Shown here: one piece after another, positions 39,936-57,007 of the stretch
Layout: every line of letters begins with the position of its first letter
Position numbering within the stretch: position 1 is the first letter of the stretch
Origin: Alphaproteobacteria bacterium
Lineage (GTDB): Bacteria; Pseudomonadota; Alphaproteobacteria; Rhizobiales; Rhizobiaceae
DNA length: 62,109 nucleotides
NCBI GenBank assembly: GCA_018829385.1
Contig: JAHJUC010000361.1
Span: 1 to 62,109 of the forward strand
Direction of reading: 5' to 3'
Position numbers and translations under genes: made by a program
Notes under the pieces: generated by a model
What the model was told of the DNA's origin: nothing
The model's database searches: none
What the model saw: only the letters and a program-made list of their open reading frames with translations

Positions 39936-40154
39936 ATGATCTTCCTCCACTGTTGCGATGGCGCAATCGCCGCCACTCTCCAGTGACGGAATTTGAACGC
40001 ACTTACCAAATGTGTCAAGTATTTATGATGTTTTTTGACTGAGTTTGATCATTTCGTTGACAGGCCGCCCGAAAATTCCGATACTTTGCTGATGATGGAG
40101 GGGGTCACATTGTCGAACAATCAGCTCAATGCATCCGATCAGGGGCGCTCACGA

Positions 40155-40940
40155 ATGTCACGGGTGGAACGTATTCCGGCGCAGCGTCACGCTGCTATTC
40201 TGGAACATCTCCGCGCCAACGGGGCGGCGTCGATTTCCGAGCTAACAGAGGCTATGGCTGCGTCTCCGTCGACTGTTCGGCGTGATCTGGATTATCTGGC
40301 GGAGCGTGGCTATGTGGAGCGAACCCATGGCGGCGCCACTCTGAGCGCGACCATTACCGAGGTCGAAAGCTCCATCACCAGTCATATTGCACAGAGGGAA
40401 AAGACAGCCATCGGTCGCTTTGCCGTCAGCTGGGTCAAGCCCAACATGACCATCATCTTCGACAGCGGAACCACTGTGCTGGAGGCCGCCAGGGCAATCT
40501 CCGAAAGCAACCTGCCAATCACCGCCATCACCAATGACCTCGGCATCGCTCAGGTCCTGGGCGGTAGTGGCAACAATCAGGTCATCGTTCCGGGCGGCAC
40601 GCTTCGTCCTGGGTCGCAGACCTTGCTTGGCAATCCCGGCGCCGCCTTTCTGCGCGGAATTCATGTCGATCTGGCCTTTCTGGGTACTCATGCAATCACC
40701 GATAACCTGCTGACCGATTCCTCCCTTGATCTCGCTGACGTTAAGCGTGCAATGATCCAGGCAGCGCGCCATGTCGTGGTGCTCGTCGACAGCAGCAAAT
40801 TTGGACCGACATGCAATTTCGACATCTGCACATTGGCCGAAATTGACGAGGTCATTTCGGACAGCAGGCTTTCGGAGAGCAATCGGAAAGCCACCGAAGC
40901 CCACGGCGTAAAGGTATCTATCGCCCAGGTGATCGAGTGA
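40155..40940 (+). CDS. DeoR/GlpR-family regulator
   Basis: S.STVRRDL..L, RTHGGA, DSGTT, DSSKF. Confidence 0.93.
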   Translation: MSRVERIPAQRHAAILEHLRANGAASISELTEAMAASPSTVRRDLDYLAERGYVERTHGGATLSATITEVESSITSHIAQREKTAIGRFAVSWVKPNMTIIFDSGTTVLEAARAISESNLPITAITNDLGIAQVLGGSGNNQVIVPGGTLRPGSQTLLGNPGAAFLRGIHVDLAFLGTHAITDNLLTDSSLDLADVKRAMIQAARHVVVLVDSSKFGPTCNFDICTLAEIDEVISDSRLSESNRKATEAHGVKVSIAQVIE

Positions 40941-42025
40941 CAGGAAATTGCAATCAGAAGCGGATCCGTTTGCTGGCCGACGATCTGACGGGTGCTCTGG
41001 ATTCGGGAGCCAAGTTTTCGCGACGATTCGGTTCCCTTCTTATCGGCTTTCGGTACGCAAACTCTTTGCCGCGCGGAAACCTCGGGTTCGACTGCGGCAC
41101 ACGTGACGCCACGGCGGAAACAGCGCAGGCACGCAACACCGCTCTTGGCGGCTTTTTCCATGATGCCGATATCGCCATGCGGAAGGTGGACACGTTGCTG
41201 CGCGGGCATACTTTCGAGGAAGTCGCGCTTAATTATCGCCTTGGCGGGTTCAGGTCGGCCGTGTTCGCACCGGCATTTCCGGAGCAGGGCAGGGTAACCC
41301 AGGACGGTCGGCAATGGACACATCAGGGCGAAGACTTAGTCGACGTCGCCGGACCGCTGGCTGACCGCTTTCGTGAGGCAGGGATCTCGCCGATTATCGC
41401 CGCTACTCCTGACAAAATTGTTGGTTCCGGGTTTTTCATCTGCGACGCCACCACCACGACAGATCTCAAGCACATCGTAGCAGCCGGGCATGGGCTAGAG
41501 GGCCCGGTGCTGTGGTGCGGTGCAGCCGGGCTGGCGGAGGCGCTAGGAGGCGGGGCAGAACTCAAAAAGCTGCCGCAGCGGCCGTGCCTCGTAATTGTCG
41601 GCTCCTATCACCAGCGCTCCCGCACCCAACTGGCCGCGCTGGGAGAGGCATTTCCACGCTCGATGATGATCGCAACCAGCCGGGAATGTACGTGTGGCAT
41701 CGCCAGCGCCGATGGCCTGTCGGTGCTAGGCTTCGATCTCAAGCGCGTTCAGGAAGCAGACATGGCTGACGCTGTCGCGGAAGCCCTCCAGATGCGCTTG
41801 AACACCTTGTCTGCTCCGCCGGGCTATCTGGTCGCGACCGGCGGAGAAACACTTCGGACAATTGCGGAAACGATGGGCGCGACGATGTTTCGCGTCACCG
41901 GTGAAATAGAAAATGGAATTCCGTTATCGCATTTGGAGGGAGGGAAATGGGATGGCGTTGCCGTGGTCTCAAAATCTGGTGCCTTCGGCGATACCCAAAC
42001 CTTGGTACGGCTAGCTGCCGCATAG
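40937..42025 (+). CDS. Four-carbon acid sugar kinase (DUF1537, DtnK/DenK-like)
   Basis: ADDLTGA.D, KVDTLLRG, PAFP..GR.T, TGGET, KSGAFG. Confidence 0.9.
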   Translation: MTGNCNQKRIRLLADDLTGALDSGAKFSRRFGSLLIGFRYANSLPRGNLGFDCGTRDATAETAQARNTALGGFFHDADIAMRKVDTLLRGHTFEEVALNYRLGGFRSAVFAPAFPEQGRVTQDGRQWTHQGEDLVDVAGPLADRFREAGISPIIAATPDKIVGSGFFICDATTTTDLKHIVAAGHGLEGPVLWCGAAGLAEALGGGAELKKLPQRPCLVIVGSYHQRSRTQLAALGEAFPRSMMIATSRECTCGIASADGLSVLGFDLKRVQEADMADAVAEALQMRLNTLSAPPGYLVATGGETLRTIAETMGATMFRVTGEIENGIPLSHLEGGKWDGVAVVSKSGAFGDTQTLVRLAAA

Positions 42026-42059
42026 CCTCGCTTCTCATTAAAGTCTCAGGAGAATAAAC

Positions 42060-43109
42060 TTGAACATCAAACCCAGCCCCCGCCTAGCCGTAACAATGGG
42101 CGATCCAGCAGGCATCGGACCCGAGATCGTATTGAAGGCCGTTGCAAAGCTCGAACCGCGCATTACCGCCGGCGAGTTGAGCCTTTCGATCGTCGGGGCA
42201 CGTTCGTGCTTTCAACAAGCCGCTGAAGCACTGAAGATTGAGGCGGACTGGCTCGAGCGCGATGTGCCCGGCATCACGATGGTTGATCTGGACACTGCCC
42301 ATGACAAGATCGAGTTCGGCAAGACCTCCGCCGACGCAGGCAGGCTTGCATACCTAGCAATCGAGGAAGCGGTAAGACTCTGCCTGACCGGCCAGGCGGA
42401 TGCCATTGTCACCGCTCCCATCAGCAAGGAATCAGTCAATCTCGCGGGCTACGCATTCTCCGGTCACACGGAATTGCTGGCCCACCTTACTGGCGCCAGG
42501 GACTCGGTGATGCTGCTCGTGCATGGCGACATGCGCGTCTCGCACGTATCCACCCATGTAGCCCTGTCCGAGGCCGTCCGCAGGCTGACACCCGAGCGTC
42601 TATCGCGCGTGGTGCATCTGACCGATGAAGCACTCCGGGATCTCGGCATTGAGCGTCGGCGGATAGCGGTAGCTGCCCTCAATCCGCATGCGGGTGAAGG
42701 TGGCATGTTCGGCACCGAAGACCTCACCGTCACCACTCCGACCGTGGAGTCGTTGCGTCATCAGGGATACAATGTGGAAGGGCCGGTGCCCGGCGACACT
42801 GTGTTCGTTAAGCTGCGGGCCCGTCAGTATGACGCGGTCATCGCCGCCTATCATGATCAGGGCCATATCCCGGTCAAGCTGCTCGGCTTCTCGGTGGATC
42901 CGGATACGGGGCTGTGGGAGGCGTTGAGCGGCGTCAACGTGACGCTTGGGCTGCCCATTGTACGCACCTCGGTCGACCATGGTACGGCGTTCGACATCGC
43001 AGGAAAAGGCACCGCCGGCGAGGGCAGCTTGCTCGAAGCTATCGACCTTGGCATCACACTCGCCGCAGCGAGAGCCGTCACACTCAAACAGGCGTTGGTG
43101 CACGGATAA
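42060..43109 (+). CDS. pdxA2: PdxA-family dehydrogenase, PdxA2-type (4-phospho-threonate/erythronate)
   Basis: GDPAGIGPE, GHTE, LNPHAGE, YHDQG, RTSVDHGTAFDIAG; adjacent to the DUF1537 kinase. Confidence 0.88.
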   Translation: MNIKPSPRLAVTMGDPAGIGPEIVLKAVAKLEPRITAGELSLSIVGARSCFQQAAEALKIEADWLERDVPGITMVDLDTAHDKIEFGKTSADAGRLAYLAIEEAVRLCLTGQADAIVTAPISKESVNLAGYAFSGHTELLAHLTGARDSVMLLVHGDMRVSHVSTHVALSEAVRRLTPERLSRVVHLTDEALRDLGIERRRIAVAALNPHAGEGGMFGTEDLTVTTPTVESLRHQGYNVEGPVPGDTVFVKLRARQYDAVIAAYHDQGHIPVKLLGFSVDPDTGLWEALSGVNVTLGLPIVRTSVDHGTAFDIAGKGTAGEGSLLEAIDLGITLAAARAVTLKQALVHG

Positions 43110-43459: not shown

Positions 43460-43580
43460 TGTCTGACAGCAGCCCCCTTGAGACAGATACTGGTTGATTG
43501 AGAAGGGAGTATTTCTGGTTCATCGTAGCTCGATCAAAGGAAGCGAAGATGAGACAGAAAACCGGGCCGCAGAAACCTGC
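43460..43580 (+). mobile_element. IS3-family left-end fragment
   Basis: The orfA-like start MRQKTGPQKPA is abruptly joined to an oppositely oriented IS fragment. Confidence 0.5.
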
Positions 43581-43945
43581 CGGACTGCTCCCCCTCCCGC
43601 CGAAGCAGAACGAACAGCCGTCGGTATCTGAAACGTCGGCGCTCATTGGACAGTTCGCGCAGCCTCAATCGCAGTTCGACCTCCGGCGGTCGGCAGGACC
43701 GATAGCGGACCATCTTGCGGTCGGCGGAAATGATCTGGCAGGCCCGCCGTTCCGAAAGCCCCATATCGGTCTTCAGATGCGTGACCGAGTCTCGCTTGGC
43801 GGTATGCCCTACCATTATTATTTGCGAGAAGCTCGCGGAGTGCTGCTACGTCCAGCATTTGCTCGGCCAGCAGCTTCTTCATTTGTCCGTCCTCTGATGG
43901 GCCGGACTCTAATCAATTTTGGAGGAAACTCGCAGTGACAGGTCA
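43580..43945 (-). mobile_element. IS3-family (IS407 group) remnant
   Basis: TG-starting end at 43945; internally deleted orfA (MKKLLAEQMLDVAALRELL) and orfB start (SERRAC...RRRF.YRRL..LLRREG). Confidence 0.85.
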
Positions 43946-43957
43946 GTCTGAAATGCT

Positions 43958-45478
43958 TCAGGTTGGCAGCCGTCTCTCAAAGGGAAGCGGAACGGCGTCA
44001 CACCGCCTGATCACTTCATTGAAGAGTGGAACAAGAAACGCGTTCTGTGCTTCGACCTGCCTGTGCTGACGCAAGAAGGCAGGCATCCTGTCCCGGATTT
44101 CGGCAAGAATTGCATCTTCATCCAGATCCGTGAAACAACCGTCGCGGATAACGAACCTACCGTCGATCATGACACTCTCTACGGCGCTGCCGTTCTCGCA
44201 ATATACCAACTGACTGGCAACGTCGGACAGGGGAGTGAAAGCAGTTCCACGCGATGGATCAAGAATTACCAGATCGGCTTGTTTGCCAACTTCGAGGGAT
44301 CCGGTGGTCTTTTCCAGCATTGCGGCTTTGGCTCCGCCGGTCGTTGCTGCCTTAAGGACCTCGTCAGAGGTAAGGCCGAAGTCCGGCCCCTGGCAGGTGG
44401 CCGTGGACACTAGGCCGGCCACGCGAATAACGTCAAACAGCCGCATCGTGTCGTTCGAAGAGGCCCCGTCGGTTCCCAGGGACAGGTTCACCCCGGCGTC
44501 CAGAAGTCGCCTGACCGGGGCGAGACCCGAGCCAAGCTTGAGATTGGCCAGCGCGTTCCATGAGACCGAAACGCCGGCCTCTCCCATCATTTCGATATCG
44601 TTGTCGTTGACCCAGACGGCGTGGGCCATCAGGACTTCCGGACCGAGCAGGCCGTGTTCGCTCATGAAGCGCACGATGGAACCGCCGAACAGTATCTCGG
44701 CCGTTACGGCCTGCGAACGGGTTTCCAGCACATGCGTATGGTAGGGGACCTGCCATTGCCGGGCCAGGTCCCGGCATGCCTGCATCAATTCGATGCTGCA
44801 GCGCTGCGGGCCGGAAGGGGCCAGCATGTAGCGCAACCGGCCGTCTCCGCTTCCATGCAGTGTGCGGAAAACTTCGCTGCAGTATTCCGCATATTCCGCA
44901 GCCCCGGTGAGCGGGAAATCGAGCTGTGCCTGGATCTCCACCGGGAACACCTCGCGGGCATGGGCAAGCGTGTCGAGATAGGGCAGGTTCATGAGGCCGC
45001 TGGACACGTTGGCGCGGATGCCGGCCTCGTCATAGGCCCGAAACACAGTCCCCAGCCGTTCCAGATCGTGGGTGGGCGGATCGAAGAAGTCATCGGAGAT
45101 CATCGTCACTCCGGAGCGTAGTGATTCGATGGCCACGAGGAGGCTGCGCAGACGGAGCATCTCAAGATCGGGAGGTCCTGAGCCGAGGAACGGGTATGAC
45201 CAGCAGAGCCAACTCTCCAGCGGCATTCGCTGGTAGCGTCCGCGCAGGAACATCTCGCTTGAGTGAAGGTGGGCGTTAACGAGCCCGGGCATCACCACCC
45301 GGCCGGCCGCCTCGACTGTTTGTGTCCCGTCTGGTGCCGTTAGATCTTCGCCCAGACCGGTGATACGTCCAGCCTCGATCAGAATGTCCGCCCGGCGCGG
45401 GGTGACTTTTTCTCCAGCCGTCATGGTCAGAACGTCGGCGCCGCGGATAAGGATTGCGCTTGCAGGATTGTTGCTCAT
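43958..45478 (-). CDS. Metal-dependent amidohydrolase (AtzA/MtaD/cytosine-deaminase-like)
   Basis: PGLVNAHLH, HTHVLE, AHAVW, NLKLGSG, LGTDG, GSLEVGKQAD. Confidence 0.92.
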   Translation of the reverse strand: MSNNPASAILIRGADVLTMTAGEKVTPRRADILIEAGRITGLGEDLTAPDGTQTVEAAGRVVMPGLVNAHLHSSEMFLRGRYQRMPLESWLCWSYPFLGSGPPDLEMLRLRSLLVAIESLRSGVTMISDDFFDPPTHDLERLGTVFRAYDEAGIRANVSSGLMNLPYLDTLAHAREVFPVEIQAQLDFPLTGAAEYAEYCSEVFRTLHGSGDGRLRYMLAPSGPQRCSIELMQACRDLARQWQVPYHTHVLETRSQAVTAEILFGGSIVRFMSEHGLLGPEVLMAHAVWVNDNDIEMMGEAGVSVSWNALANLKLGSGLAPVRRLLDAGVNLSLGTDGASSNDTMRLFDVIRVAGLVSTATCQGPDFGLTSDEVLKAATTGGAKAAMLEKTTGSLEVGKQADLVILDPSRGTAFTPLSDVASQLVYCENGSAVESVMIDGRFVIRDGCFTDLDEDAILAEIRDRMPAFLRQHRQVEAQNAFLVPLFNEVIRRCDAVPLPFERRLPT

Positions 45479-46362
45479 TGCTGTCCGAGTTCCCTGCTCG
45501 AAACTGCATTCCCGCCGCGAATCCGGGCTGAGATCCAGAGCCCGATAACCGTCGCGACATAAGGCAGGGCGAGCAACAGGCTGCTTGGGATCCGGTCTCC
45601 ATAGGCCAGTTGCGCCCGAATGCCGAGTGCTCCGACCAGGGCGAAGAAGAAGGCGGCGAGCGTTGCGCCGACCGGATGCCCGGCCCCGAAAATAACCGCT
45701 GCGAAACTCATGAACCCGCGTCCTGCGGTCATGTTGACGGAGAATATCTGGAGGCTTCCCGCCGCCAGCTCAGCGCCGCCAAGCGCGCAAAGAGGTCCGC
45801 CCAGAAGAAGCGCCACCAGCCGCATCTTGGCGGGGTTTACACCGGTTGCCCGGGCGGCGAACGGGTGTTCTCCGCAAGCCGCGAGCCTGAGGCCGAAACG
45901 GGTCCGGCACAACAGCAGCCAGCATGCCAGGATGACGAACGGCATGGCGGCGACCAGAACGGACAGTCCGCCGAAGGCTCCGAAGGCGGGCCCGATGCGC
46001 GGCAAGCCGAACGGCGCGCTGACGGCGGCTTCGCTGCCGAATATGGCTGTCAATGCGAGCGCGGTGCCGCCAAGTCCGAGCCCGGTCAGGCCGAGGCCGG
46101 CTATGATTTGGTTGGCTTTCAACACCTCGACGACAAACCAGAAAAGCACCGCAAGCAGGCAGCAGAACAAGGCTCCGGCGACCAGCCCCACGACAACCGA
46201 CTGCGCAAGCACGATGCCGACGATGGTGGCGCAGGCGCCGGTTATCATCATTCCTTCAAGGCCAAGGTGCCAGATGCCTGCACGCTGGGCTATCACGCCC
46301 GCGAGAGCGACATACACCAGCGGTGTGCCAGAACGCAGGAAGGCGACAATCAGGTCTTCCAT
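45475..46362 (-). CDS. Nucleoside-type ABC permease
   Basis: GLEGMM, GLRL.A.GEHP.AA, AGRGF, ALPY. Confidence 0.92.
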   Translation of the reverse strand: MEDLIVAFLRSGTPLVYVALAGVIAQRAGIWHLGLEGMMITGACATIVGIVLAQSVVVGLVAGALFCCLLAVLFWFVVEVLKANQIIAGLGLTGLGLGGTALALTAIFGSEAAVSAPFGLPRIGPAFGAFGGLSVLVAAMPFVILACWLLLCRTRFGLRLAACGEHPFAARATGVNPAKMRLVALLLGGPLCALGGAELAAGSLQIFSVNMTAGRGFMSFAAVIFGAGHPVGATLAAFFFALVGALGIRAQLAYGDRIPSSLLLALPYVATVIGLWISARIRGGNAVSSRELGQQ

Positions 46363-46366
46363 GTCT

Positions 46367-47398
46367 CTATCTCCTGAACCAGGTCAACAGGGCACGCAAG
46401 GCTCCGGCTTTCGCCGTGATGAAGAGCGCGATGGAGGCGTGAATAATGTCGATTGCCGCTGAAGGAAGCCCGGTCATGATCGGCAACCAGAGTCCCGAAG
46501 AGGTCAGTGCGCCAAAGAACAGTGCTATGAACCCAGCGGCGACGATCGACATGCCGGCCACCAGCGCGATCAGGATCGCGGTGAAACCGTGATCGGGCAG
46601 GAAGCCGCTTGCAAGCCGGCCGTTCGGACCGAGCAGTTCGACCGAGCCTGCAAGACCGGCCAGGGCGCCTGACAGTACGAATGCACTGACGGCGATCCGC
46701 TGCACCTTCGCCCCCTGCCAGGTCACCATGACGGGGTTGCGTCCGGCAAGTCCCGACAGGATTCCGAACGAGGTCCTGTTGACGAGCCACCAGCCCAGCA
46801 TCACGACAAGGCCAGCCAGTATGATGATCACCGGAGAGCTTCCGCTCGATTCCGAGATGCGCCACGCCGCGTCGACAGGACGCGAGGACGCCTGCTGGCC
46901 CGAACCCGACGGATCCTTGAGAGGCCCTGAGGTCACGTGAACCAGCAGCTGCGCGGCGATGAAGTTGCCCATCATCGTGGTGATCACCTCATCCGCACCG
47001 GCCTTCACCCGGAGCAGCGCCGGCCAGAGCGCCCAAAGGGCCCCGCCCGCCATTCCCGCGAGCAGACACGCCGGAACAGCCACGAATGCCGGGCTTCCAC
47101 GCAGCCATTCCGCAGCAAACGCCGCACAGATCGCCCCGAGGTAAAATTGTCCCTGGGCCCCAATGTTGAAGTAGCCGGCCCGGAAGCTGATGACGACGCC
47201 GACTGCGGTGATCAGCAGCGGCAGGCCCCAGCGCAGGATGTGATTGAGTGCGTTCGGCCGGAAGAATGCTCCGTCGATGATTGCAGCCAGCGTGCCGGTG
47301 GCCGACAGGCCGACCGCTGCAAAGATCAGGCTGCAAAGGACCAGTGCCAGCACGATGAAGGCGCCGGTCTGGATTACGGGAAACAGGCGTCCGGTCAT
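46367..47398 (-). CDS. Nucleoside-type ABC permease
   Basis: FRAGYFNIGAQGQ, EVITT.M.N, SGALAGLAG, GFTAI.IAL. Confidence 0.92.
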   Translation of the reverse strand: MTGRLFPVIQTGAFIVLALVLCSLIFAAVGLSATGTLAAIIDGAFFRPNALNHILRWGLPLLITAVGVVISFRAGYFNIGAQGQFYLGAICAAFAAEWLRGSPAFVAVPACLLAGMAGGALWALWPALLRVKAGADEVITTMMGNFIAAQLLVHVTSGPLKDPSGSGQQASSRPVDAAWRISESSGSSPVIIILAGLVVMLGWWLVNRTSFGILSGLAGRNPVMVTWQGAKVQRIAVSAFVLSGALAGLAGSVELLGPNGRLASGFLPDHGFTAILIALVAGMSIVAAGFIALFFGALTSSGLWLPIMTGLPSAAIDIIHASIALFITAKAGALRALLTWFRR

Positions 47399-48996
47399 GA
47401 TCTCGCTTCCTGTGCAGATTGCCTGCCAGCGGCGGTCATTGCGCGCCCGACAGCTTGGATGTCCCATGGCGCGGTGAACTCGGCCACGGCCTGACCCGAA
47501 ACCATGACCACAATGCGGTCGCAGATATCGAACAACTCGTCGAGGTCAGACGAAACCAGCAGTATTCCGGCGCCGTCGTTGCGGGCTTCCCGCAGGGCTT
47601 TCCAGACTGCCATGGTCGCGCCGATGTCCAGCCCCCGGGTCGGTTGTGCCGCGAGTATGAGCTTCGCGCCGGAATCCATCTCGCGTGAGAGGATGACTTT
47701 CTGGGCATTGCCGCCCGACAAAGATCCGGCAGGTTGGCCCGCATCGCTGAAACGCACATCCCAGGCTCTGAATGCCTTCTCTGCGGATTGCCGCAAGGCA
47801 CGCGGGCTGACCGGTGCGAGCAATGCGCCCCCGACAAGCTGGGCTGCACTCCAGTTCTCCCAAAGCGGGCTTGAGAGAGACAGCCCTTCCACATTGCGTT
47901 CGAACGGAATCACCCTGAGGCCCGCATCCCGTCGGGCCGCCAGGGGGGCCTTGTCCATGCGCTTGTCGGCCAGCGATATCTCGCCTGATGTCAACGGGTC
48001 GAGGCCTGCGATGGCGGCGACCAGTTCGCGTTGGCCATTGCCTTCGACACCAGCAATGCCGACTATTTCTCCACCGCGGATCGACAGGTTCACATCGTTC
48101 AGGCCTTTGCCGCCTGAGTGCGGCGAAGTGGAGACCGCCCGCAGGACAAGCGCGGGTGGGGTGTCCGGTCTGGAATGTTCATCATGCTGTTGCGCACCGG
48201 CACCAACCAGCGCGGCACGGTCCGCCGCATCAAGCCGTGCGGCAGTTTCGCCGATGATCAGTTCCGCGAGGCTTTCGGCGGTAAGATCCCGCGCCTCCAG
48301 CGGACCCGCGACGAGCCTTCCGCCGCGCAGAACGGTGACAGTGTCGGCGATGGCGAGAACTTCGCGGATCTTGTGCAGCACCAGCATCACCGTCACACCC
48401 TTGCCGCGGAGTTCGCGAACCCGTGTAAAAAGGCGTTCCGTCCCCTCCGGTGAGAGCACCGCGGTGGGTTCATCGAGAATCAGAAGTCGCGCATCGGAAA
48501 CCATTGCCCGGGCAATCTCGGCGGATTGCTGCATCTCAATTGGGAGGTCACGGATACGGGCACCCGCATCGAGGCCGAGTCCAAGTCCGTCCAGCCAGGC
48601 CTGCCAGTACCGCTCAATGCCCTGCCTGGTGAATAGGCCGGGCCTGGGGCCGACGAATTGCAACACTTCCGCGACCGTGAACGAGGGCGGCAGGGCAAAG
48701 CTCTGGTGGACCAGTTCCACCCCGGCCCCTCGGGCTTCTGCAACATTGCCGCCCGCCAGCGCCTGTCCGAAGACCGCGATCGATCCCTCGGCAGGCTGCA
48801 CCAAACCGGCCGCGACGCGCGCAAACGTGGTCTTGCCAGCGCCGTTCTGTCCGAGCACCGCATGTATGCGCCCCGGTTCGAAGCGGGCGGAGACCTCGCC
48901 AAGGGCTGTGACGTCCCCATAGCGGACGGTCACCGCCTCGGCGGTCAAGGCAGGCGCCGATGCGCCTGCCTCCTGGTGAAGGTGATCCCGGTTCAT
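47395..48996 (-). CDS. Two-domain ABC ATPase (CUT2/Nup-type)
   Basis: GQNGAGKT, LILDEPTAVL, GIAGVEGNGQ, LSGGNAQK, QPTRGLDIGA. Confidence 0.95.
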   Translation of the reverse strand: MNRDHLHQEAGASAPALTAEAVTVRYGDVTALGEVSARFEPGRIHAVLGQNGAGKTTFARVAAGLVQPAEGSIAVFGQALAGGNVAEARGAGVELVHQSFALPPSFTVAEVLQFVGPRPGLFTRQGIERYWQAWLDGLGLGLDAGARIRDLPIEMQQSAEIARAMVSDARLLILDEPTAVLSPEGTERLFTRVRELRGKGVTVMLVLHKIREVLAIADTVTVLRGGRLVAGPLEARDLTAESLAELIIGETAARLDAADRAALVGAGAQQHDEHSRPDTPPALVLRAVSTSPHSGGKGLNDVNLSIRGGEIVGIAGVEGNGQRELVAAIAGLDPLTSGEISLADKRMDKAPLAARRDAGLRVIPFERNVEGLSLSSPLWENWSAAQLVGGALLAPVSPRALRQSAEKAFRAWDVRFSDAGQPAGSLSGGNAQKVILSREMDSGAKLILAAQPTRGLDIGATMAVWKALREARNDGAGILLVSSDLDELFDICDRIVVMVSGQAVAEFTAPWDIQAVGRAMTAAGRQSAQEARS

Positions 48997-49004
48997 CACC
49001 GGCC

Positions 49005-50051
49005 TCAGAGATTTGTGTCGAAAGGCACACTCAATGAGCCATCAAGAATCTTGTTCCGTGCTTCGTCAACGAAGGGAAGCGCTGCTTCGGCCAGTTTGCG
49101 AAGGTCTTCAGGACCCTTTTCGGCGAACAGCGGCGATGGAATGAAATCGATGACCCCGGTTCCAAGCCCGGTTGACTGATGTCCGCCGCTCCAGCCGGAT
49201 TCCAGCGCCTTTGTCGCCTCGTTGTAGAGCGAGGTGCCGAAGTCGAGGCCGACAATCGAAATCACCGATTCCGGGTCGAGCGGAAACTGGGCCGGATCCA
49301 GTGTCGAGACCACCCGGCCGTCGTTTTCTCCGGCTGCGGCGATGATGCCGAAGTCGGTGGCCGCTGCATCGGTCTGGATGTAGTCGATCCCGTCGGAGAA
49401 CATCTGGCTGGCAATCTCCTGGCCCTTGGCCGGATCCTGGAAACTGCCGGCAAAGGCCACGGCGACCGTCAGGTCCGGATTGACCGAAAGCGCTCCTGCC
49501 TTGAACGCATTGTAGTCGGCATTGATGGGCGGGATGGAGATCCCTCCGATGAAGCCAAGCTTGCCCGATCGCGTGATCCTGGCAGCAAAGATTCCCGACA
49601 GGTAGCAGCCCAAGTAGTAGTCATAGGACACGGTGACGACATTCGGTATCACCGGTTCGAAGGGATCGGCAAACAGCTGGATGAACTTGGTGTCCGGAAA
49701 GTTCGGCGCCACTGCCTTGAATGGTTCCGCCACCTCATTGAAGGTTGAGACGACGATTGCAGCACCTGCTTCGCCGAGCGAAGTGAAGATCGTTTCGTAG
49801 GTCGAGGGATCTTCGGCGTAGATCGCCCGAGGGGTCATGTCGTGTTCCTTGGCGAATTCGTTGAGCTTCGCGATCATCGAATCCACGGGACCCGCGTCTC
49901 CCGCGGCCTGGGTGTGAACGAGGGCGATGAGCCCACCGGCCGCATTTGCCGGCAGGGCGGCGAGCAGTGTGCTTGCCATGACGGCCCCGGCAGCGCCGAG
50001 AAGCAGTTGGCGGCGGCCGATGCTGAGCCGCCCTTTCGTTGTATTTGTCAT
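49005..50051 (-). CDS. BMP/PnrA-family nucleoside-binding protein with a Tat-like signal
   Basis: GRRQLL signal; GFIGG..IP.I...F.AG...NP and GSF.DP.KG.E.A. Confidence 0.9.
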   Translation of the reverse strand: MTNTTKGRLSIGRRQLLLGAAGAVMASTLLAALPANAAGGLIALVHTQAAGDAGPVDSMIAKLNEFAKEHDMTPRAIYAEDPSTYETIFTSLGEAGAAIVVSTFNEVAEPFKAVAPNFPDTKFIQLFADPFEPVIPNVVTVSYDYYLGCYLSGIFAARITRSGKLGFIGGISIPPINADYNAFKAGALSVNPDLTVAVAFAGSFQDPAKGQEIASQMFSDGIDYIQTDAAATDFGIIAAAGENDGRVVSTLDPAQFPLDPESVISIVGLDFGTSLYNEATKALESGWSGGHQSTGLGTGVIDFIPSPLFAEKGPEDLRKLAEAALPFVDEARNKILDGSLSVPFDTNL

Positions 50052-50407
50052 TTGAGTTGTTCCTCTCTTGTGCTGGGCGGAATTATTGTTGGTGTCGGGG
50101 AGAAATCCGCAGGGGTCATGATCATGACGTCCTGCGAGGTAATCGCATCGAGTGCCCACACCGATGCGATGAAGTCTTGCCATTCCGGGTCGGCATACAT
50201 TGATTGCCGGCGTGCTTCCCGGTCCGCGAGGCTGTCATAGGCCCAGACCAGCACAGTGGTGTGCAGGCGGCCTATTTCGGACTGCCACAGGCCAACGAAG
50301 CGGTTCAGATGCCGCTTCTGCACCGGCAGGCCCTCGCTCCGGTATTTCTCCATCCAGCCGGTCACGGTTCCGGGCCGGAATGTGTAGGTACGGTGTTCGA
50401 TAATCAT
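50048..50407 (-). CDS. NIPSNAP family protein
   Basis: EHRTY..RPG, G.W.SEIG.L, WAYDSLADREARR..M..DPEW. Confidence 0.92.
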   Translation of the reverse strand: MIIEHRTYTFRPGTVTGWMEKYRSEGLPVQKRHLNRFVGLWQSEIGRLHTTVLVWAYDSLADREARRQSMYADPEWQDFIASVWALDAITSQDVMIMTPADFSPTPTIIPPSTREEQLK

Positions 50408-52038
50408 GCGCGTGCGTCCTCAAGGATGAAGTCGGAGGCTCGTTCGCCGATCATGATGGCGGGAGCGTTGGTGTTTCCGGAGGAAATGATCGGCATGATA
50501 GATGCGTCGGCGACCCGCAGGCCTTCGATGCCGTGAACCTTGAGCCGGCTGTCGACGACAGCCATCGGGTCGCCGTTCGGCCCCATCTTGCAGCTTCCAA
50601 CCGGATGGAACGTGGTCATGGCGGTCGCCTTGAGCCACGCGGTCAGTTCCGCATCGCTGTCCACGGCTTCCCCCGGGGCCAGCTCCGCTCCTTTGAACGG
50701 TCCGAACGCCGCCTGCGCCATGATAGTCCGGGTCTTGCGGATCGCATTGATCATGGTGCGGATATCGAATTCGTCCGACAGGTAGTTCGGGCGGATCTTC
50801 GGCGCGGCGAAAGGATCGCCCGACGCCAGTTGGATGGTGCCGCGGCTGGCCGGATTGACCGGGCCGACACGAATGGTAAGCCCGTGATTGGCCTCTACCC
50901 TCTGCTTGCGGAAGGGATTGGGAAAGTTGAGATTGGCGGTCTTCTCGAGTGCCGGCATGAAATGCAGCTGGACGTCTGGCGCCTCCAGGCCCTCTCGGGT
51001 GCGCAGGAATGCGCCGCCTTCATAGGGGAAGGTCGTGACCACCCCGGTTCCGAAGAGCATCGCTTGGATCATTGAGATCGTCAGACGGTCAATGCGTAGA
51101 TCGCTGTATAGCGTGACCGGCTGCCTGCACTCCCAGCTCATCACGCAATCGACGTGATCCTGGACGTTCTGCCCGACGCCCGGCAGATCCTTCCGGACCG
51201 TGATGCCGTGCTCAGCGAGGTGCGCGGCGGGGCCGATACCGGAAAGCATCAGCAGTTGCGGCGAGTTCACTGTACCGCCCGATACGATGACCTCGCGCGC
51301 TGCAGTCGCGCTTTCCGGGCGCCCGTTGCGGGACCAAGTGGCGCCCGTCACGCGGCTTCCCTCCCAGGTCAGGCCGGTCACGTGTGCGCCGGTAAGGATT
51401 GTCAGGTTCGGTCTTTTCCTGGCGGGCTTGAGAAAGGCTGATGATGTGGACCAGCGCCGGCCTTTGCGGATCGTGAAGTCGTAACGACCGACACCTTCCT
51501 GCGCTTCGCCATTGAAATCGTCGTTGAACGGAAGACCTGCCTGTTCGCCCGCTTCGATGAACGTGTCGAACAAGCCGTTCTTCGAGCGAGCCCTGCACAC
51601 AGTCAGTTCGCCCTTTGTGGAGTGATACTCGCCGTCACCGCGCTCCGGATTGGTTTCCGATCGCAGGAAGGCGGGCAGAACCTTCTCGTAACTCCACTCC
51701 GGCAGTCCCAGCTGGGCCCAGCGATCGTAGTCGTGCCGGTTGCCGCGCACGTAGATCATGCCGTTGATTGTCGAGGTGCCGCCGAGCACCTTTCCGCGCG
51801 GCCAGTAGAGCTTGCGCCCGTTCAGGTGCGGCTCGGCCTCGGTGTGATAGTGCCAGTTGTAGAGACCCGAATGAAACAGCTTGCCCATCAGCATCGGCAG
51901 CCGAACCAGCGGATTCCGGTCCTTTGCGCCGGCTTCCAGGAGCAGCACCTTGTGGCGGCCGTCGGCGCTCAGGCGGTTGGCGAGCACCGCGCCTGCGGAT
52001 CCCGCCCCAACCACTATGAAATCGTAGGTCTTTGTCAT
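50404..52038 (-). CDS. GMC-family FAD oxidoreductase (choline-dehydrogenase-like)
   Basis: GAGSAG, PRGKVLGG.S.INGM, SPQLLMLSGIG, FHPVG.CKM, SGNTNAP; real start MTKTYDF. Confidence 0.95.
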   Translation of the reverse strand: MTKTYDFIVVGAGSAGAVLANRLSADGRHKVLLLEAGAKDRNPLVRLPMLMGKLFHSGLYNWHYHTEAEPHLNGRKLYWPRGKVLGGTSTINGMIYVRGNRHDYDRWAQLGLPEWSYEKVLPAFLRSETNPERGDGEYHSTKGELTVCRARSKNGLFDTFIEAGEQAGLPFNDDFNGEAQEGVGRYDFTIRKGRRWSTSSAFLKPARKRPNLTILTGAHVTGLTWEGSRVTGATWSRNGRPESATAAREVIVSGGTVNSPQLLMLSGIGPAAHLAEHGITVRKDLPGVGQNVQDHVDCVMSWECRQPVTLYSDLRIDRLTISMIQAMLFGTGVVTTFPYEGGAFLRTREGLEAPDVQLHFMPALEKTANLNFPNPFRKQRVEANHGLTIRVGPVNPASRGTIQLASGDPFAAPKIRPNYLSDEFDIRTMINAIRKTRTIMAQAAFGPFKGAELAPGEAVDSDAELTAWLKATAMTTFHPVGSCKMGPNGDPMAVVDSRLKVHGIEGLRVADASIMPIISSGNTNAPAIMIGERASDFILEDARA

Positions 52039-52045
52039 GATGTAT

Positions 52046-52894
52046 CTACCAGTCGATCGGCTGTGCACCCATGCGCGCAAGGTGCGCATTGGCGGCAAGG
52101 AACGGATTGGGGCAGGCGAGAAATTCGTCTGCATAGGCCGGATGCGGCAGAACCAGCGACAGGTGCGGTTCTGGTGCTGGCAGCAACCCTGCCGCCGCGA
52201 GATTGTCGGCCGCGGCCTGCCCGAGCGCCACGAAGACGACCGGGCGTCCCTGGCTGGCGACATGCCGCAGCGCCGCCTGGATCACAGGTGCCCAGAATGG
52301 AACATGGCCGCGCGCCTGGTGCGGGTCGATGTCTCTTCGGAAGCGGCTAAGCGTAAGCGATGAATTCAGCAGCAGGACGCCTTCACGTTGCTGCCGGTCC
52401 GCCATCTCCGTCGGCGCCTCGATGTCCATGCTCCCAGCTTCTATCTCGTCGAGCATTTCCGACCAGGCCGCGAAATTCTTCGACAGTTCAGGACGCTTGT
52501 GACGGGCTGCCATCAGCATCTGGGTCCACGCCCGGATCGACTTCGAGAACATGCGGTCGAGGTCGCGCCAGACCACGGCGTTGCCGATCTCGAAGGCGCG
52601 CCCTGTCGCTGCGGCAGGTTCGGGGTAGGGATCCTGTCCGAGAAGCACCACCCGCACGCCGTCGGCGCGCACACCGTCGAAAGCTCGGAGCATGTGGGCG
52701 CCGTCGGGAGCTCCGGGGAATGTCCGGCCCTTGCGCGCGGGGAAGATTGGTTCCCAAACCTCCAGGTCCAGGCTTTCATCGACATCGTCGATCCCGGTCT
52801 GAACCTGGTCCATCACCGACTGCCAGTCTGGCGGAAGGTCGTCCTTCCAGCCAGCGGTCGTCTCGGACAATGCGTCGCGCAATGTCGTTGCCAT
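52046..52894 (-). CDS. Atypical uracil-DNA-glycosylase superfamily protein (family-1-like)
   Basis: VVLLGQDPYP, ATGRAF, GVLLLNSSLT, VFVALG, HPAY, NPF..AN..L....IDW. Confidence 0.88.
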   Translation of the reverse strand: MATTLRDALSETTAGWKDDLPPDWQSVMDQVQTGIDDVDESLDLEVWEPIFPARKGRTFPGAPDGAHMLRAFDGVRADGVRVVLLGQDPYPEPAAATGRAFEIGNAVVWRDLDRMFSKSIRAWTQMLMAARHKRPELSKNFAAWSEMLDEIEAGSMDIEAPTEMADRQQREGVLLLNSSLTLSRFRRDIDPHQARGHVPFWAPVIQAALRHVASQGRPVVFVALGQAAADNLAAAGLLPAPEPHLSLVLPHPAYADEFLACPNPFLAANAHLARMGAQPIDW

Positions 52895-52928
52895 GGTCGT
52901 CTCCCTGTTGCCTCAAGGGAAGACGATC

Positions 52929-52978
52929 CTGACGATTTCGTCAAGTTTTATTTTTGACAAACCTGACGCTAGCGTCAA
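52929..52978. promoter_or_regulatory. Two RutR-type operator palindromes flanking a TTGACA
   Basis: CTGACGATTTCGTCAA (52929-52944) and CTGACGCTAGCGTCAA (52963-52978); TTGACA at 52954-52959. Confidence 0.7.
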
Positions 52979-53059
52979 ATTATGCGGAGGACGTTCTTGC
53001 CCTGCGCAGCGAAGCTGCTAAGACAGTCCGAAACATGGCATCGAAAGCGGACAGGCAGC

Positions 53060-53698
53060 ATGGCACGTCAATCTGGTGGCGAACGGAAGAAGGCGGATGG
53101 AGACAATGAAGGGCGGATCCGCGCGCGCAACGAAGCGAAGATACTCGAGGTCTCCGTCCGGCTTTTTTCGGCCAAGGGCTTCGATGGGACGACGATTTCC
53201 GAGATAGCCGAGGAATCGGGTTTGCCCAAAGCGAACGTTTATTACTATTTCAAGACCAAGACGGCGATCTATGAGCGACTGATCGCGGAGGTCTTTCGCG
53301 ACTGGGATGCGGCCTTGCGCCATATCCGCCCCGAGCGCGACCCGCGAGAAGCGCTTGCGGATTACGTTCGCGAAAAGTTGGAGAGTTCGCGTCGGAACGC
53401 GGCGCAATCACGTTTCTTCGCGGGAGAACTCCTCCGCGGCGGCAAGTTCCTGTCGCGCCGGCAGCGCCAGCACATGCTGGAGGTGACCCGCGAAGCCTGT
53501 GAAGCTGTCGAGCACTGGATTTCCGAAGGCCGGTTTCCGGAGTTGGATCCGAGGCATTTCTTTATAATGATATGGGCCACGACCCAGTTCTATGCCGACT
53601 TTGCACCCGTGGTGGCTGCCACTCTGGAGGTTCCGCGGTTACGGAAATCGGACTTCGACGATGCAGCCGACCAGATCTTGAAAGCAATACGTCTTTAA
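53060..53698 (+). CDS. TetR-family regulator, RutR-like
   Basis: GLPKANVYYYF.TK, Y.R.KL..SR....SR.FA.E...G and IWATTQFYADF. Confidence 0.9.
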   Translation: MARQSGGERKKADGDNEGRIRARNEAKILEVSVRLFSAKGFDGTTISEIAEESGLPKANVYYYFKTKTAIYERLIAEVFRDWDAALRHIRPERDPREALADYVREKLESSRRNAAQSRFFAGELLRGGKFLSRRQRQHMLEVTREACEAVEHWISEGRFPELDPRHFFIMIWATTQFYADFAPVVAATLEVPRLRKSDFDDAADQILKAIRL

Positions 53699-53995: not shown

Positions 53996-54622
53996 TCATT
54001 CGCGTTCCTTCGTTATTTTCCCATCCTGCAATAAACCAGCACGATAGATCGCGAACACCCGCGGTGCATTCTCCAGCATCTGCGCCTGGTCTCCGCTGAT
54101 TAGTGCCTGCACCACCAGACCCTGGATCATGCCGAGAAAAAGTGTCGCTGCGGCAGCCTCGTCAAGACTGGCAGGTAGGGCACCGCAACTTTTTCCTGCC
54201 GCCAGTATGCGGCGAAGCCGGGTTTCGTAGTTTTTAGTCAGAGACTGCGCGGCCTGTTTGGCCGGGGTTGCTCCAGTGCGTTGAAGCTGCCCCATCAGGA
54301 TTCGCGGCACGCCCGGGTATTCGGCCACAAAACCAACATGCGCCATGAACATGGCCTCCAGCGCTGCTACGGGATCAGACTCGGCGCCGGCAACTTTGTC
54401 GATGCGCTCAAACAGGCGATCGGAAACCCAGTTCATGACGTCGCGCCAGATTGCGTCCTTGCTCGGAAAATGTCGGAACAGCGCGCCCTGGCTGAATTTC
54501 ATTCTTCCGGCGATGGCCGTGGTTGTGATGTCTTCCGGGCTTTTCGCTGCGGCGAGGTCAATGACTGCCTCGACAGCCTCGTTACGACGGTCCTCGGTGG
54601 GCATGTATTTCGCGCGGCGCAT
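53996..54622 (-). CDS. TetR/AcrR-family regulator
   Basis: TT.AIA.....SQGALFRHFPSKD; divergent from the RND cluster. Confidence 0.92.
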   Translation of the reverse strand: MRRAKYMPTEDRRNEAVEAVIDLAAAKSPEDITTTAIAGRMKFSQGALFRHFPSKDAIWRDVMNWVSDRLFERIDKVAGAESDPVAALEAMFMAHVGFVAEYPGVPRILMGQLQRTGATPAKQAAQSLTKNYETRLRRILAAGKSCGALPASLDEAAAATLFLGMIQGLVVQALISGDQAQMLENAPRVFAIYRAGLLQDGKITKERE

Positions 54623-54806
54623 GGGAGCATCCTATCCAGTAAGTGGCTTATCGCGTTTTAGCTCATTCTTCTGACGAAGAAAACCATAGTTCCACTGATA
54701 ATGCCGGCTAACGGGGATTTACGTGGTGAATCTGGGACTTTACAAAGTGAGTGATCTATTACATATGTGGCGAAGTGAGCACGAAAATACAAATGGAATG
54801 CTACCC

Positions 54807-55166
54807 ATGATGAGCCACACCGCCCCCCTCCTTCGAGTTGTGCTGTTGACCGCAGCTACGCTTGCCGCCGCCCCGGCGCTTGCAGACACGCTGACCCAGG
54901 CGCAGATCGCCACTGAGATAATCGGAAAGGACCTGGTTGGGCTGCGCACCGGAATGACAGTGCGGCTGCGCTACGATCCCGGCGGCAAAGTCACAATGAA
55001 AGCGGCGTTCGTAACCGGCGCCGGTACCTGGAAATTTGCCGGCGACAGCCTCTGCATGACGATGACGAAAGGCCCCAAACGCGGCATGACCTGCCTTACC
55101 TTCGAAAAATTCGGTGACGGGTCGTTCCGCAATTCAGAGGGAATGATCTTGCGGGTCGGCAGATAA
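54807..55166 (+). CDS. Small secreted hypothetical protein
   Basis: Signal peptide ending ALA; GTW...GD.LC...C. Confidence 0.7.
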   Translation: MMSHTAPLLRVVLLTAATLAAAPALADTLTQAQIATEIIGKDLVGLRTGMTVRLRYDPGGKVTMKAAFVTGAGTWKFAGDSLCMTMTKGPKRGMTCLTFEKFGDGSFRNSEGMILRVGR

Positions 55167-55213
55167 ATCACGGAAGCAGCAAGCCGGATGGCGGCTGCGA
55201 TACCGAACAAGGA

Positions 55214-55624
55214 ATGCAGGAGACAACACTAATGCTGAGAAACAGGTTGATTGGCGCAGTTGCGATTGCTTTCGGCGTCCTGACACTCTGGTCAGGCGGA
55301 TTTGTGCTTTTTGGGCCCGACTCGGCACGAATCGCGGTTGGTCAGATCATACCCTTTGTGCTCTGGTTCAATTTCCTGTCAGGCGCGGTCTACATTGTCG
55401 CCGGATCTGGCATCTTTCAAGGGCAGCGTTACGGTAAAGTGTTGGCCAGAGCCATGGCCATGGCTCTGGTCGTTCTGTTCGCAGCTTTTCTGGCCATCAT
55501 CGCCGGGGGGCAGGAATGGGAAACGCGAACCCTGGGAGCGCTGATGCTTCGCCTCGGTTTCTGGTGCCTGGCAGCCTGGGCGAGTGTGACCACGGCCCAC
55601 CCCCGCCCGGCTCTCAATGGTTGA
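55214..55624 (+). CDS. Four-TM hypothetical membrane protein
   Basis: FG.LT..SGG, PFVLWFNF..G..Y, E.RT.GA..LR. Confidence 0.8.
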   Translation: MQETTLMLRNRLIGAVAIAFGVLTLWSGGFVLFGPDSARIAVGQIIPFVLWFNFLSGAVYIVAGSGIFQGQRYGKVLARAMAMALVVLFAAFLAIIAGGQEWETRTLGALMLRLGFWCLAAWASVTTAHPRPALNG

Positions 55625-55672
55625 GGCCTCGCCGCTTCAACTGCCGCATCCGCTGGTTAGGCGCGCCCTGAT

Positions 55673-57007
55673 GTGCGCATCCCACGATTGAGAAGGAGGT
55701 CGCTCTTGCGCCGCAGTTCCGCATTATGGTTTCTCCCACCGGTCGCGTTGGGAATTGCCATCGCCGCCATCTTTATCATCCAGGCCGAGGGGCCTGCGCG
55801 CGTAGAAGACGATGTTAAGGGCCGTGCAGTGCGCACGGTAACGCTTCAGCCGACCGGTATCGCCCCGGTGGCGATGGGTTGGGGCAATGTTCAGGCGGCG
55901 GAAACCTGGACTGCCGTATCGGAGGTCAAGGGGCAAGTCATCTGGCGTCATGCCGATCTCGACAGTGGCAAGCTGTTAGCCGGCGGCACCAAAGTGCTTG
56001 AGATTGATCCGACCGATTACCGGCTGGCCATTGTCCAGGCAGAAGCCGACTTGGCCGCTTATGCTGCCGAAGCGGCACAAATCGACGCCGAAGCGGAGAA
56101 TACAGGCCGCATCCTGGACCTGGAAGAAGCACGGCTGGCGCTGTCCGAGGCTGAACTTGTGCGAAACCGTGATCTGCTGAAACGGGGCGTGGCGGCGCAG
56201 ACCCGAGTCGATGAAGCAGAACGTGCCACGCTTCTGGCCCGGCGCAGCGTCGTCGAGTTGAAGAACACGCTCGCACTGATCGGGCCGCGACGCGATGCTC
56301 TGGCCGCCCAGACCGCCCGTACCAAAGCCGCTTTGGCCCGCAACCAGCGCGACCTCGATCACACCACGATCACCACTCCTTATGACGTCCGGGTTACCAA
56401 GGTATCCGTGGACCGGTTCGAATATGTCAATATTGGCCAAACGCTTGTGGCGACAGATGGTGTGGCGCAGGTCGAGGTGGTGGCGCAATTGCCGTTCGCT
56501 GCGTTTCGGCGCCTGCTCTATGGTACAATCCCGATCGAGGATACGCTTGCCGCGATCCGCACGGGTCCATCCAGCCGAATGACCGCTAGGGTGCGGCTGG
56601 TGTCCGATCCGACCCAGACTTGGCCGGCAATCGTAACCCGTGTCGAGGGTGCGCTTGATGCCCGGGCCCGAACGGTCCCGGTAATCGTCACGGTCGAAGA
56701 CCCCTATGGCAACTCTAATCCGCCGCTGCGGCCCCCATTGCTGCCCAACATGCAGGTCGAGCTTACGCTGACCGGCCATACGATCCCCGACTCGCTTGTC
56801 ATTCCCGAAACTGCGCTGCATGGTGATCAGGTCTATCTTGCGAATGATCAGGACCAACTCGAATTGCGTCCCGTAACCGTGGCCTTCAGGCAGGAAGGGG
56901 TTGCTGTGATCGCCGAGGGCCTCTCGATAGGTGACCGCCTGGTTCTCGATGACATTACCCCGGCCATTCCCGGCACCGAACTGCTGCCGATCGAGGAGCA
57001 GCCATGA
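55673..57007 (+). CDS. RND efflux periplasmic adaptor (MFP)
   Basis: N-terminal TM, EV.G, IDP.DY, long coiled coil, IPE.ALH. Confidence 0.9.
   Translation: MRIPRLRRRSLLRRSSALWFLPPVALGIAIAAIFIIQAEGPARVEDDVKGRAVRTVTLQPTGIAPVAMGWGNVQAAETWTAVSEVKGQVIWRHADLDSGKLLAGGTKVLEIDPTDYRLAIVQAEADLAAYAAEAAQIDAEAENTGRILDLEEARLALSEAELVRNRDLLKRGVAAQTRVDEAERATLLARRSVVELKNTLALIGPRRDALAAQTARTKAALARNQRDLDHTTITTPYDVRVTKVSVDRFEYVNIGQTLVATDGVAQVEVVAQLPFAAFRRLLYGTIPIEDTLAAIRTGPSSRMTARVRLVSDPTQTWPAIVTRVEGALDARARTVPVIVTVEDPYGNSNPPLRPPLLPNMQVELTLTGHTIPDSLVIPETALHGDQVYLANDQDQLELRPVTVAFRQEGVAVIAEGLSIGDRLVLDDITPAIPGTELLPIEEQP

Follow-up and report, generated by a model that had tools for sequence, protein, structure and literature searches.

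Why should a protein with the fold of a DNA repair enzyme head an operon for uptake and oxidation? The question arises from contig JAHJUC010000361.1 of Alphaproteobacteria bacterium GCA_018829385.1 (Rhizobiaceae), analysed here as one stretch of 62,109 nucleotides (the window; coordinates given without a locus handle are window positions). A preliminary description of this DNA had listed eight tightly coupled minus-strand genes opposite a RutR-like TetR regulator. All nine genes were found, with the families originally assigned to them (Pfam and NCBIfam), and the successive junctions within the operon, at +7, -4, -4, +8, -4, +4 and -4 nucleotides, are indeed tight. A genome scan with a 39-sequence alignment of the first protein, which resembles UNG, yielded 191 relatives, from which the best 80 loci (48–83% identity) were kept. 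The cluster is more than a chance arrangement: its gene order recurs in related genomes and palindromes recur upstream from it. We suggest that the operon is real and conserved and encodes a pyrimidine-nucleoside pathway, based on a repurposed UNG, that has apparently not been described before, and that the UNG-like protein is likely to be a small-molecule uracil N-glycosidase rather than a DNA repair enzyme. The features concerned are listed below.

52046..52894, minus strand: UNG-like protein of 282 amino acids, first gene of the operon; UDG match (PF03167) of 29.7 bits, barely above the cut-off
52622..52639, minus strand: GQDPYP motif (residues 86-91), with catalytic Asp88 and Tyr90 as the C5 gate; in 80/80 copies
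52538..52540, minus strand: Ser119, aligned to the PPSL-loop serine of UNG (human Ser169, a 5'-phosphate contact); in 80/80 copies
52130..52144, minus strand: HPAYA (residues 251-255), replacing the HPSPL loop of UNG; the catalytic His is kept, the 3'-phosphate Ser and the intercalating Leu are gone
50404..52038, minus strand: GMC flavin oxidoreductase of the choline/alcohol dehydrogenase type, 544 amino acids; predicted to oxidise a primary alcohol
50048..50407, minus strand: NIPSNAP protein, 119 amino acids; putative role in processing the oxidised sugar
49005..50051, minus strand: BMP/PnrA-family binding protein (Bmp) with a remodelled pocket
47395..48996, minus strand: two-domain ATP-binding cassette (ABC) ATPase
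46367..47398, minus strand: ABC permease 1 (BPD_transp_2)
45475..46362, minus strand: ABC permease 2 (BPD_transp_2)
43958..45478, minus strand: deaminase-type amidohydrolase (Amidohydro_1), 506 amino acids; accessory, likely to turn the cytosine form into the uracil form
52929..52944: candidate operator, the TGAC-N6-GTCA palindrome nearer to the operon
52963..52978: another TGAC-N6-GTCA palindrome, which overlaps two promoter-like matches in divergent orientation
53060..53698, plus strand: RutR-like TetR regulator (TetR_N and TetR_C_3), 212 amino acids from the likely ATG; reading frame open from 52982

The nearest named homologs of the UNG-like protein are from Rhizobiaceae (78–83% identity). 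The GMC gene follows the UNG-like gene as its immediate neighbour in 76 of the 80 loci, the NIPSNAP gene is present in 77, the binding-protein gene in 75, permeases 1 and 2 in 73 and 72, respectively, and a divergent RutR-like gene in 76 (77 counting one distant copy); several of the absences are contig ends. Linkage to GMC, NIPSNAP, transporter and regulator genes thus extends across genera, and the lack of conservation that the preliminary description had named as grounds for giving up its proposal was not found. The amidohydrolase gene occurs in 50/80 loci and in only 49 of the 69 with a full 10 kb of downstream flank, and is therefore accessory, outside the conserved core. The absence of the gene from the other 20 makes deamination an optional step and weakens this part of the earlier proposal. 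Exceptions to the general layout are L084, with the UNG-like gene and regulator alone, and L013, L054 and L087, in which the UNG-like gene is paired with NIPSNAP and/or GMC genes next to other transporters. Distances for the UNG-like protein and its partners were positively correlated (Spearman 0.45–0.78, 69 loci), a result not used as evidence given the non-independence of kin.

The distribution of the operon is patchy. In an even draw of the family (Rhizobiaceae, 299 scored genomes), the UNG-like clade was present in 16 genomes and the binding-protein clade in 17, including all 16 of the former; one genome had the binding protein without the UNG-like gene. The operon was found in 2/25 genomes of the genus and 2/400 of the class. 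The operon is carried by Sinorhizobium meliloti pSymA-type replicons (31 plasmid records) and is also found in Ensifer. The stretch of pSymA from 215 to 245 kb in S. meliloti 1021 lacked the operon genes, and the 37 plasmid matches did not include NC_003037. In L093:18122-24445 (S. meliloti ABS7 pSymA), frameshifts split the ATPase, second permease and amidohydrolase matches, which suggests decay or sequencing errors. At L270:15698-18256, the operon contains an insertion, preceded by a palindrome of its own, of a second copy of the binding-protein gene and a gene for a cytochrome P450; fructoselysine kinase and deglycase-like genes lie downstream. A module of THI5-like binding protein, FAD oxidoreductase, CoA-transferase, enoyl-CoA hydratase and ferredoxin genes adjoins the operon in 5/80 loci (L013:1052-7380, L059, L066, L070 and L074). 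This module, an SDR pair and one P450 were set aside as downstream steps because they are too rare.

Sequence and predicted fold both place the UNG-like protein specifically with the family-1 UNGs. The top listed structure matches of its predicted model (predicted local distance difference test score 89.7) were all family-1 UNGs (Z 19.9, 216 aligned residues, root-mean-square deviation 3.3 to 4uqm). It shares with the E. coli, human and M. tuberculosis enzymes the fold, the GQDPY motif and equivalents of Phe158, Asn204, His268 and Ser169. The putative uracil-pocket residues Q87, D88, Y90, F101, N177 and H251 are each conserved in 80/80 copies, as is S119, which was placed on the PPSL-loop serine by profile alignment. 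According to excerpts of the literature, the form in which articles are cited throughout, Tyr147 of human UNG takes up the room next to C5 and Asn204 keeps cytosine out, SMUG1 accepting C5-substituted uracils through a glycine at the Tyr147 position (PMC8587785, PMC1919486), and the PPSL-loop Ser (human Ser169) contacts the 5'-phosphate and Ser270 the 3'-phosphate (PMC8730318). However, the UNG-like protein differs from these enzymes in lacking the HPSPL loop, in its net charge, in heading a transport and oxidation operon and in carrying insertions, one stretch between residues 104 and 165 and another around 185–196. All 80 copies have HPA at the HPSPL site, and the leucine-intercalation loop is absent: the Ser270 position is Ala in 80/80, the Leu272 position Ala in 75/80 and the Ser247 position Asp in 53/80. 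The NCBIfam ung equivalog cut-offs were not reached (best score 76.5 bits versus 143–237). The whole protein carries a net charge of -12 in the window. The mean is -8.8 for 39 proteins of the operon clade and +2.5 for 46 distant homologs, and five ordinary UNGs from the genus range from -1 to +4. Other UDG-family genes were present in all 19 carrier genomes tested, and also in the genome of the window. The proposal that the UDG fold has been repurposed gains from these features, as the sequence would be more in keeping with a small-molecule N-glycosidase than with an enzyme that scans DNA.

In a tree of 41 sequences, comprising 13 of the 39 operon-clade proteins (every third), 23 of the 46 distant homologs (every second) and all five ordinary UNGs, the operon clade was nested within the distant homologs on a long branch of its own (support 100/100). 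As these distant homologs also lack the loop, the loop was probably lost before recruitment to the operon, and what appears specific to the operon clade in the alignments is its acidity and an invariant R184/D190/H192/Q193 loop. In the four cases seen, the distant homologs had unrelated neighbours. The distant loop-less lineage with insertions (L095:11992-12855, L096:12001-12860, L097:11992-12831 and L178:2402-3283; proteins P0130-P0270) lies near peptidase, amidohydrolase and exonuclease genes. Viral contigs gave weak UNG matches only (best E value 3e-16 among the matches listed), an ESM Atlas search returned UDG clusters only, and a metagenome scan for distant homologs, with a pattern that proved too general, found full-length relatives in 2/80 loci.

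The regulator is of the TetR_C_3 type (E value 3e-32 to 3loc) and has equivalents of RutR Trp77, Trp167 and Gln171, which we take to be the uracil-contact residues; W172 was found in 76/76 rows, Q176 in 75 and W82 in at least 95%. It scored below the RutR equivalog cut-offs (TIGR03613, 132.9 of 368 bits; PRK15008, 124.6 of 230). Two 14-bp palindromes, which presumably resemble the E. coli RutR box consensus, are located in the gap between the UNG-like gene and the regulator. TGAC-N6-GTCA is present no more than 170 nucleotides upstream in 79/81 copies, versus 5/1534 random windows, and is a candidate operator next to the operon promoter region. Promoter-like matches were not above chance (3 found, 2.0 expected), and neither were those of a terminator scan. 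The regulator type, divergent layout and palindromes are similar to those of E. coli RutR and rut, but the predicted targets here are uptake and glycoside-processing genes, whereas rut encodes ring-cleavage functions (RutA–G). L270 and L271 have extra operator palindromes ahead of the binding-protein gene. In the genome of the window, paired operator-type palindromes are present on contigs C693 and C821, possibly the remainder of a RutR regulon, and a second RutR-like gene lies on C227.

The predicted model of the binding protein, which has the Bmp fold and a PF02608 match, was closest to nucleoside-bound BmpD (Z 32.4) and PnrA (31.9), compared with 28.6 for AtzT and 28.5 for RfuA. The BmpA pocket consists of Phe27, Phe151, Phe176, Val224, Asp225, Lys242 and Asp98 (PMC13325309). 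Like the BMP/PnrA-Nup importers (BmpA, BmpD and TmpC/PnrA; Z 30–32), the system has a two-permease layout and keeps the equivalents of Asp98 and Phe176 (76/77 rows). It differs from them in lacking the full conserved pocket: Lys242 is replaced by Leu or Ile (76/77; Leu in the window), Phe151 and Ala200 are replaced by Asp (76/77), and Asp225 is kept in only 38/77. The BmpA numbering offset was read from the alignment, and the Phe27 region, beyond the HMMER alignment, was placed by eye. In NCBIfam, each of the four transporter proteins scored best against a 'putative B6 ABC transporter' model (NF047927-30), in every case below the cut-off (47/400, 355.6/670, 147.2/400 and 85.6/465 bits). The NIPSNAP reading frame (50048-50407) exceeds most of its relatives in length by about 17 residues and runs into the start of the binding-protein gene, where relatives usually have an intergenic gap.

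The GMC protein matches BetA and other GMC alcohol oxidoreductases over its full length (E value 7e-133 to 9lq0), with the His/Asn catalytic pair conserved. It reaches the broader PRK02106 subfamily cut-off (666.4 of 605 bits) but, unlike BetA, scores below that of TIGR01810 (603.5 of 732.1) and has no bet genes nearby. At least five GMC paralogs (about 44–47% identity) are encoded elsewhere in the same genome. The solved relatives of the NIPSNAP protein are all uncharacterised. In the amidohydrolase, H70, H72, H249, E252 and H286 are conserved in 51/51 rows, with a TDG motif in the consensus. The HxH, H-x-x-E, His and Asp residues are the metal and catalytic set of amidohydrolase-fold deaminases (MTA/SAH, 8-oxoguanine and triazine types), and no named family cut-off was reached among the best 25 NCBIfam matches. 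In L013, the UNG-like gene is flanked by genes for Zn deaminases of the cytidine type, with a dCMP-deaminase-family gene directly upstream.

Two further enzymes are encoded in related operons, and they bear on the window because the same transporter clade is shared. Nucleoside hydrolases have a DxDxxxDD fingerprint, and the Ca2+ held by their aspartates binds the 2'- and 3'-hydroxyls (PMC8910321, PMC10526354). A nucleoside hydrolase gene is present in 32/80 loci and, in 31 of these 32 (e.g. L081:17481-18422), Gln and Gly replace two of the three Ca2+ aspartates (DPGQDQ, HGPC). Each motif was found in 117/120 of the homologs listed, and the DxDxxxDD fingerprint with its downstream Asp is not retained. 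A related DPGQDQ copy (L274:7055-8026) belongs to a separate ABC operon that also contains a further hydrolase gene and SDR, enolase-like and amidohydrolase-like genes, the last three labelled by eye. Ten of the 11 closest family matches of the variant hydrolase lie within these operons. The eleventh is in L273, which has a regulator, two palindromes, a transporter, and VOC, variant hydrolase, deaminase, canonical hydrolase and phosphorylase genes, but no UNG-like, GMC or NIPSNAP genes. As L273 keeps the regulator, transporter and deaminase, the UNG-like/GMC/NIPSNAP set and the variant hydrolase/phosphorylase set look like alternative ways to cut one substrate. A relative of thymidine phosphorylase ends the operon in L058 and L060 (2/80 loci), and also in L270 and L271.

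L058:18225-19559, L060:19660-20784, L270:8515-9849, L271:8414-9748 and L273:5590-6939: thymidine-phosphorylase-like genes (proteins P0276-P0395)

The base site of this phosphorylase is intact, and the E. coli DeoA residues K84, H85, S86, R171, S186 and K190 are each conserved in 119 or more of the 120 relatives listed; T123E and M111N were found in all 120 and H119Y in 116, and the copy in L273 shares T123E and H119Y but retains M111. The family has an EK insertion in the phosphate region, some members are from Herbiconiux and some are fused to VOC domains. A VOC gene is present in 22/80 loci, and at least five VOC-phosphorylase fusions were found among the relatives listed. We assume that Thr123 of DeoA and Asp242 contact the 3'-OH; no publication stating a role of Thr123 at the sugar was found in the literature. 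Thr123 ends the phosphate-binding loop (human 144–153; PMC11069602). The thymidine-phosphorylase-like family may be phosphate-independent or act on a modified sugar. Across the partner proteins, the residues predicted to bind the base are kept and the sugar and phosphate sites are changed. As the binding protein, hydrolase and phosphorylase are each altered at such sites, the clues point to the sugar.

We therefore favour, tentatively and at a little under even confidence, a reading in which the operon takes up a nucleoside of uracil or cytosine whose sugar is non-standard and oxidises it at the 5' position, the UNG-like enzyme then freeing uracil. The ABC system would import the nucleoside and, where present, the amidohydrolase would convert the C form to the U form, a step that would be needed because the pocket Asn selects uracil. 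The GMC enzyme would oxidise the 5'-CH2OH to an aldehyde or carboxylate, which could stand in for the 5'-phosphate at Ser119, and Asp88 and His251 would hydrolyse the N-glycosidic bond by UNG-like chemistry. NIPSNAP, plus VOC where present, would handle the freed oxidised sugar, and freed uracil or the substrate itself would relieve repression by the RutR-like protein. The base is predicted to be unsubstituted at C5, and the sugar change is predicted to lie on the 2',3' face, more likely at 3' (3'-deoxy or 3',4'-didehydro). A 3'-phosphate substrate was rejected, since the changes remove a Lys and add acids, and a 3'-amino sugar was judged less likely because the hydrolase loses the Asp expected to pair with the amine, under an assumed Asp-3'-amino geometry. 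A 2'-O-methyl or plain 2'-deoxy nucleoside is possible, but the variant hydrolase keeps Asp14 and Asn39, presumably the 2'-OH partners, and the genome has canonical phosphorylase and hydrolases elsewhere. Hydrolases and demethylases for 2'-O-methyl nucleosides are known (PMC6278475, PMC12709175), and the excerpt of PMC12709175 contains no mention of a glycosylase, GMC or RutR.

The proposed route shares its deaminate-then-cleave logic with ordinary pyrimidine nucleoside catabolism (cytidine deaminase, RihA/B/C, DeoA) and with 2'-O-methyl routes (LbNH, AgNH, RK9NH and PHYHD1-like demethylases). However, as far as the excerpts describe them, those routes use no UNG fold, GMC or NIPSNAP, and the Rih and DeoA relatives in these operons have lost the defining sugar and phosphate residues, whereas the genome keeps canonical copies elsewhere. 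No UNG-fold enzyme acting on a free metabolite was found in the literature, and to our knowledge none is known.

Several observations weigh against this reading. The variant hydrolase and phosphorylase are absent from the window, and 31/80 operons hold a second glycoside-cleaving candidate next to the UNG-like gene, so the UNG-like protein need not cut. The window's own binding protein retains the Asp225 equivalent, and thymidine-binding BmpA has Lys242, so the change at this position names no sugar. The distant homologs have also lost the HPSPL loop (about 30–42% identity; Ser169 equivalent kept in 43/46), and the GMC gene is not next to the UNG-like gene in L013, L084 and L087. According to the excerpts, uracil excision from DNA survives the S169A and S270A mutations in the human enzyme, and bacterial SMUG1 works with Ala at the Leu272 position; by analogy, the loss of Ser270 or Leu272 alone need not stop DNA excision.

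A more specific possibility, which we consider quite unlikely, is that the operon degrades ddhC and ddhU, the 3'-deoxy-3',4'-didehydro nucleosides made by viperin, from animals, fungi or microbes. These compounds fit each clue: their C5 is unsubstituted, the 2'-OH is present, the 3'-OH is missing and the 5'-alcohol is allylic. A sugar that lacks the 3'-OH would also agree with the independent loss of 3'-side contacts in four protein families. Deamination would convert ddhC to ddhU, the allylic alcohol would be oxidised to the 5'-carboxylate and the UNG-like enzyme would free uracil; what is left, an acid aldehyde of the 2-keto-3-deoxy type, would enter central metabolism. Both ddhC and ddhU, and the 5'-carboxylate of each, occur naturally and are excreted (PMC13247962; also PMC12181374), about 90% of three ddh compounds being recovered in rat urine within 8 h (PMC13247962). 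Viperins are found in animals, fungi, some algae and prokaryotes, the fungal ones making mainly ddhUTP, but viperin is absent from land plants, on which many carriers live (bioRxiv 2023.09.13.557418). No publication on this operon or on bacterial ddh-nucleoside breakdown was found in titles and abstracts; supplementary transport-screen or fitness tables could hold the inducer.

The invariant Ser119, a 5'-phosphate contact in UNG (PMC8730318), would also suit an enzyme that cuts the 5'-monophosphate of an imported analogue, a house-cleaning N-glycosidase, with the GMC enzyme acting later on the freed sugar or another alcohol. The lost 3'-side contacts suit a mononucleotide as well as a 5'-carboxylate, and the dCMP-deaminase-family gene upstream in L013 points the same way. 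However, no kinase gene was found among the recurring neighbours of the 80 loci, the UNG-like protein is strongly acidic and GMC is its immediate neighbour in 76 loci, and we regard this explanation as unlikely. It is distinctly improbable that the protein is still a uracil-DNA glycosylase, co-regulated to clean DNA during the uptake of uracil compounds or to strip uracil from DNA fragments. Its catalytic and pocket residues are all intact, the loss of Ser270 and Leu272 need not abolish activity and 11/16 carriers have no second family-1 UNG match, but this explanation does not sit well with the acidic charge, the first position in a catabolic operon, the clade-specific invariant D190/H192/Q193, the patchy spread and the other UDG genes in all 19 carriers tested.

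The remaining alternatives concern the ligand. The B6 transporter matches, all below the cut-off, the heavily remodelled binding pocket and the presence of pyridoxine 4-oxidase and HMF oxidase among the GMC relatives would agree with an N1-alkyl uracil or a vitamin B6- or thiamine-like hydroxymethyl heterocycle, the UNG fold binding it or cleaving a C-N bond. This is improbable, given that the binding-protein model is nearer to nucleoside-bound BmpD and PnrA than to AtzT or RfuA, and that nucleoside hydrolase and pyrimidine phosphorylase genes have been recruited to related operons. The substrate suggested in the preliminary description, a 5-hydroxymethyl-pyrimidine nucleoside that would be imported, deaminated, deglycosylated and oxidised at the CH2OH of the base, is the least probable of those considered here. 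The same two oxidases, among the GMC relatives in the PDB, act on heteroaryl CH2OH groups and the regulator is RutR-like, but Tyr90 (human Tyr147), which would block C5, is conserved in 80/80 copies, SMUG1 taking C5-substituted uracils via a glycine (PMC8587785, PMC1919486), and the changes in the partner proteins are at sugar and phosphate sites, not base sites.

The G+C content is about 62–63% within the operon and 57–59% on both flanks. Just beyond the end of the operon, a short open reading frame (43534-43815, minus strand) had no Pfam or NCBIfam match; we take it to resemble an IS3-family transposase remnant. Positions 37020-43109 encode a TRAP transporter, a DeoR regulator, a four-carbon-acid sugar kinase family protein and a PdxA-like dehydrogenase, in what looks like a threonate/erythronate-type catabolic cluster; it does not recur among the neighbour clusters of related loci and is not linked to the operon there. 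On the other side, positions 53996-60177 contain a second TetR gene, two small open reading frames, one with a further operator-type palindrome inside it at 55280, and an RND efflux pair.

If our favoured reading of an imported, 5'-oxidised nucleoside were true, evolution would have made a catabolic enzyme out of a textbook DNA repair fold. Thousands of annotations in these loci as 'uracil-DNA glycosylase', 'choline dehydrogenase', 'nucleoside hydrolase' or 'thymidine phosphorylase' would then name the wrong kind of enzyme, even if their number were right. Bacterial NIPSNAP proteins would gain a first concrete candidate substrate for assays. Given the residue patterns, the possible ligands come down to a small set of compounds that can be bought, and the presence of the operon in S. 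meliloti pSymA-type replicons and Ensifer makes it directly testable. If the substrate proved to be ddhC or ddhU, the operon would show the fate of the antiviral products of viperin in nature.

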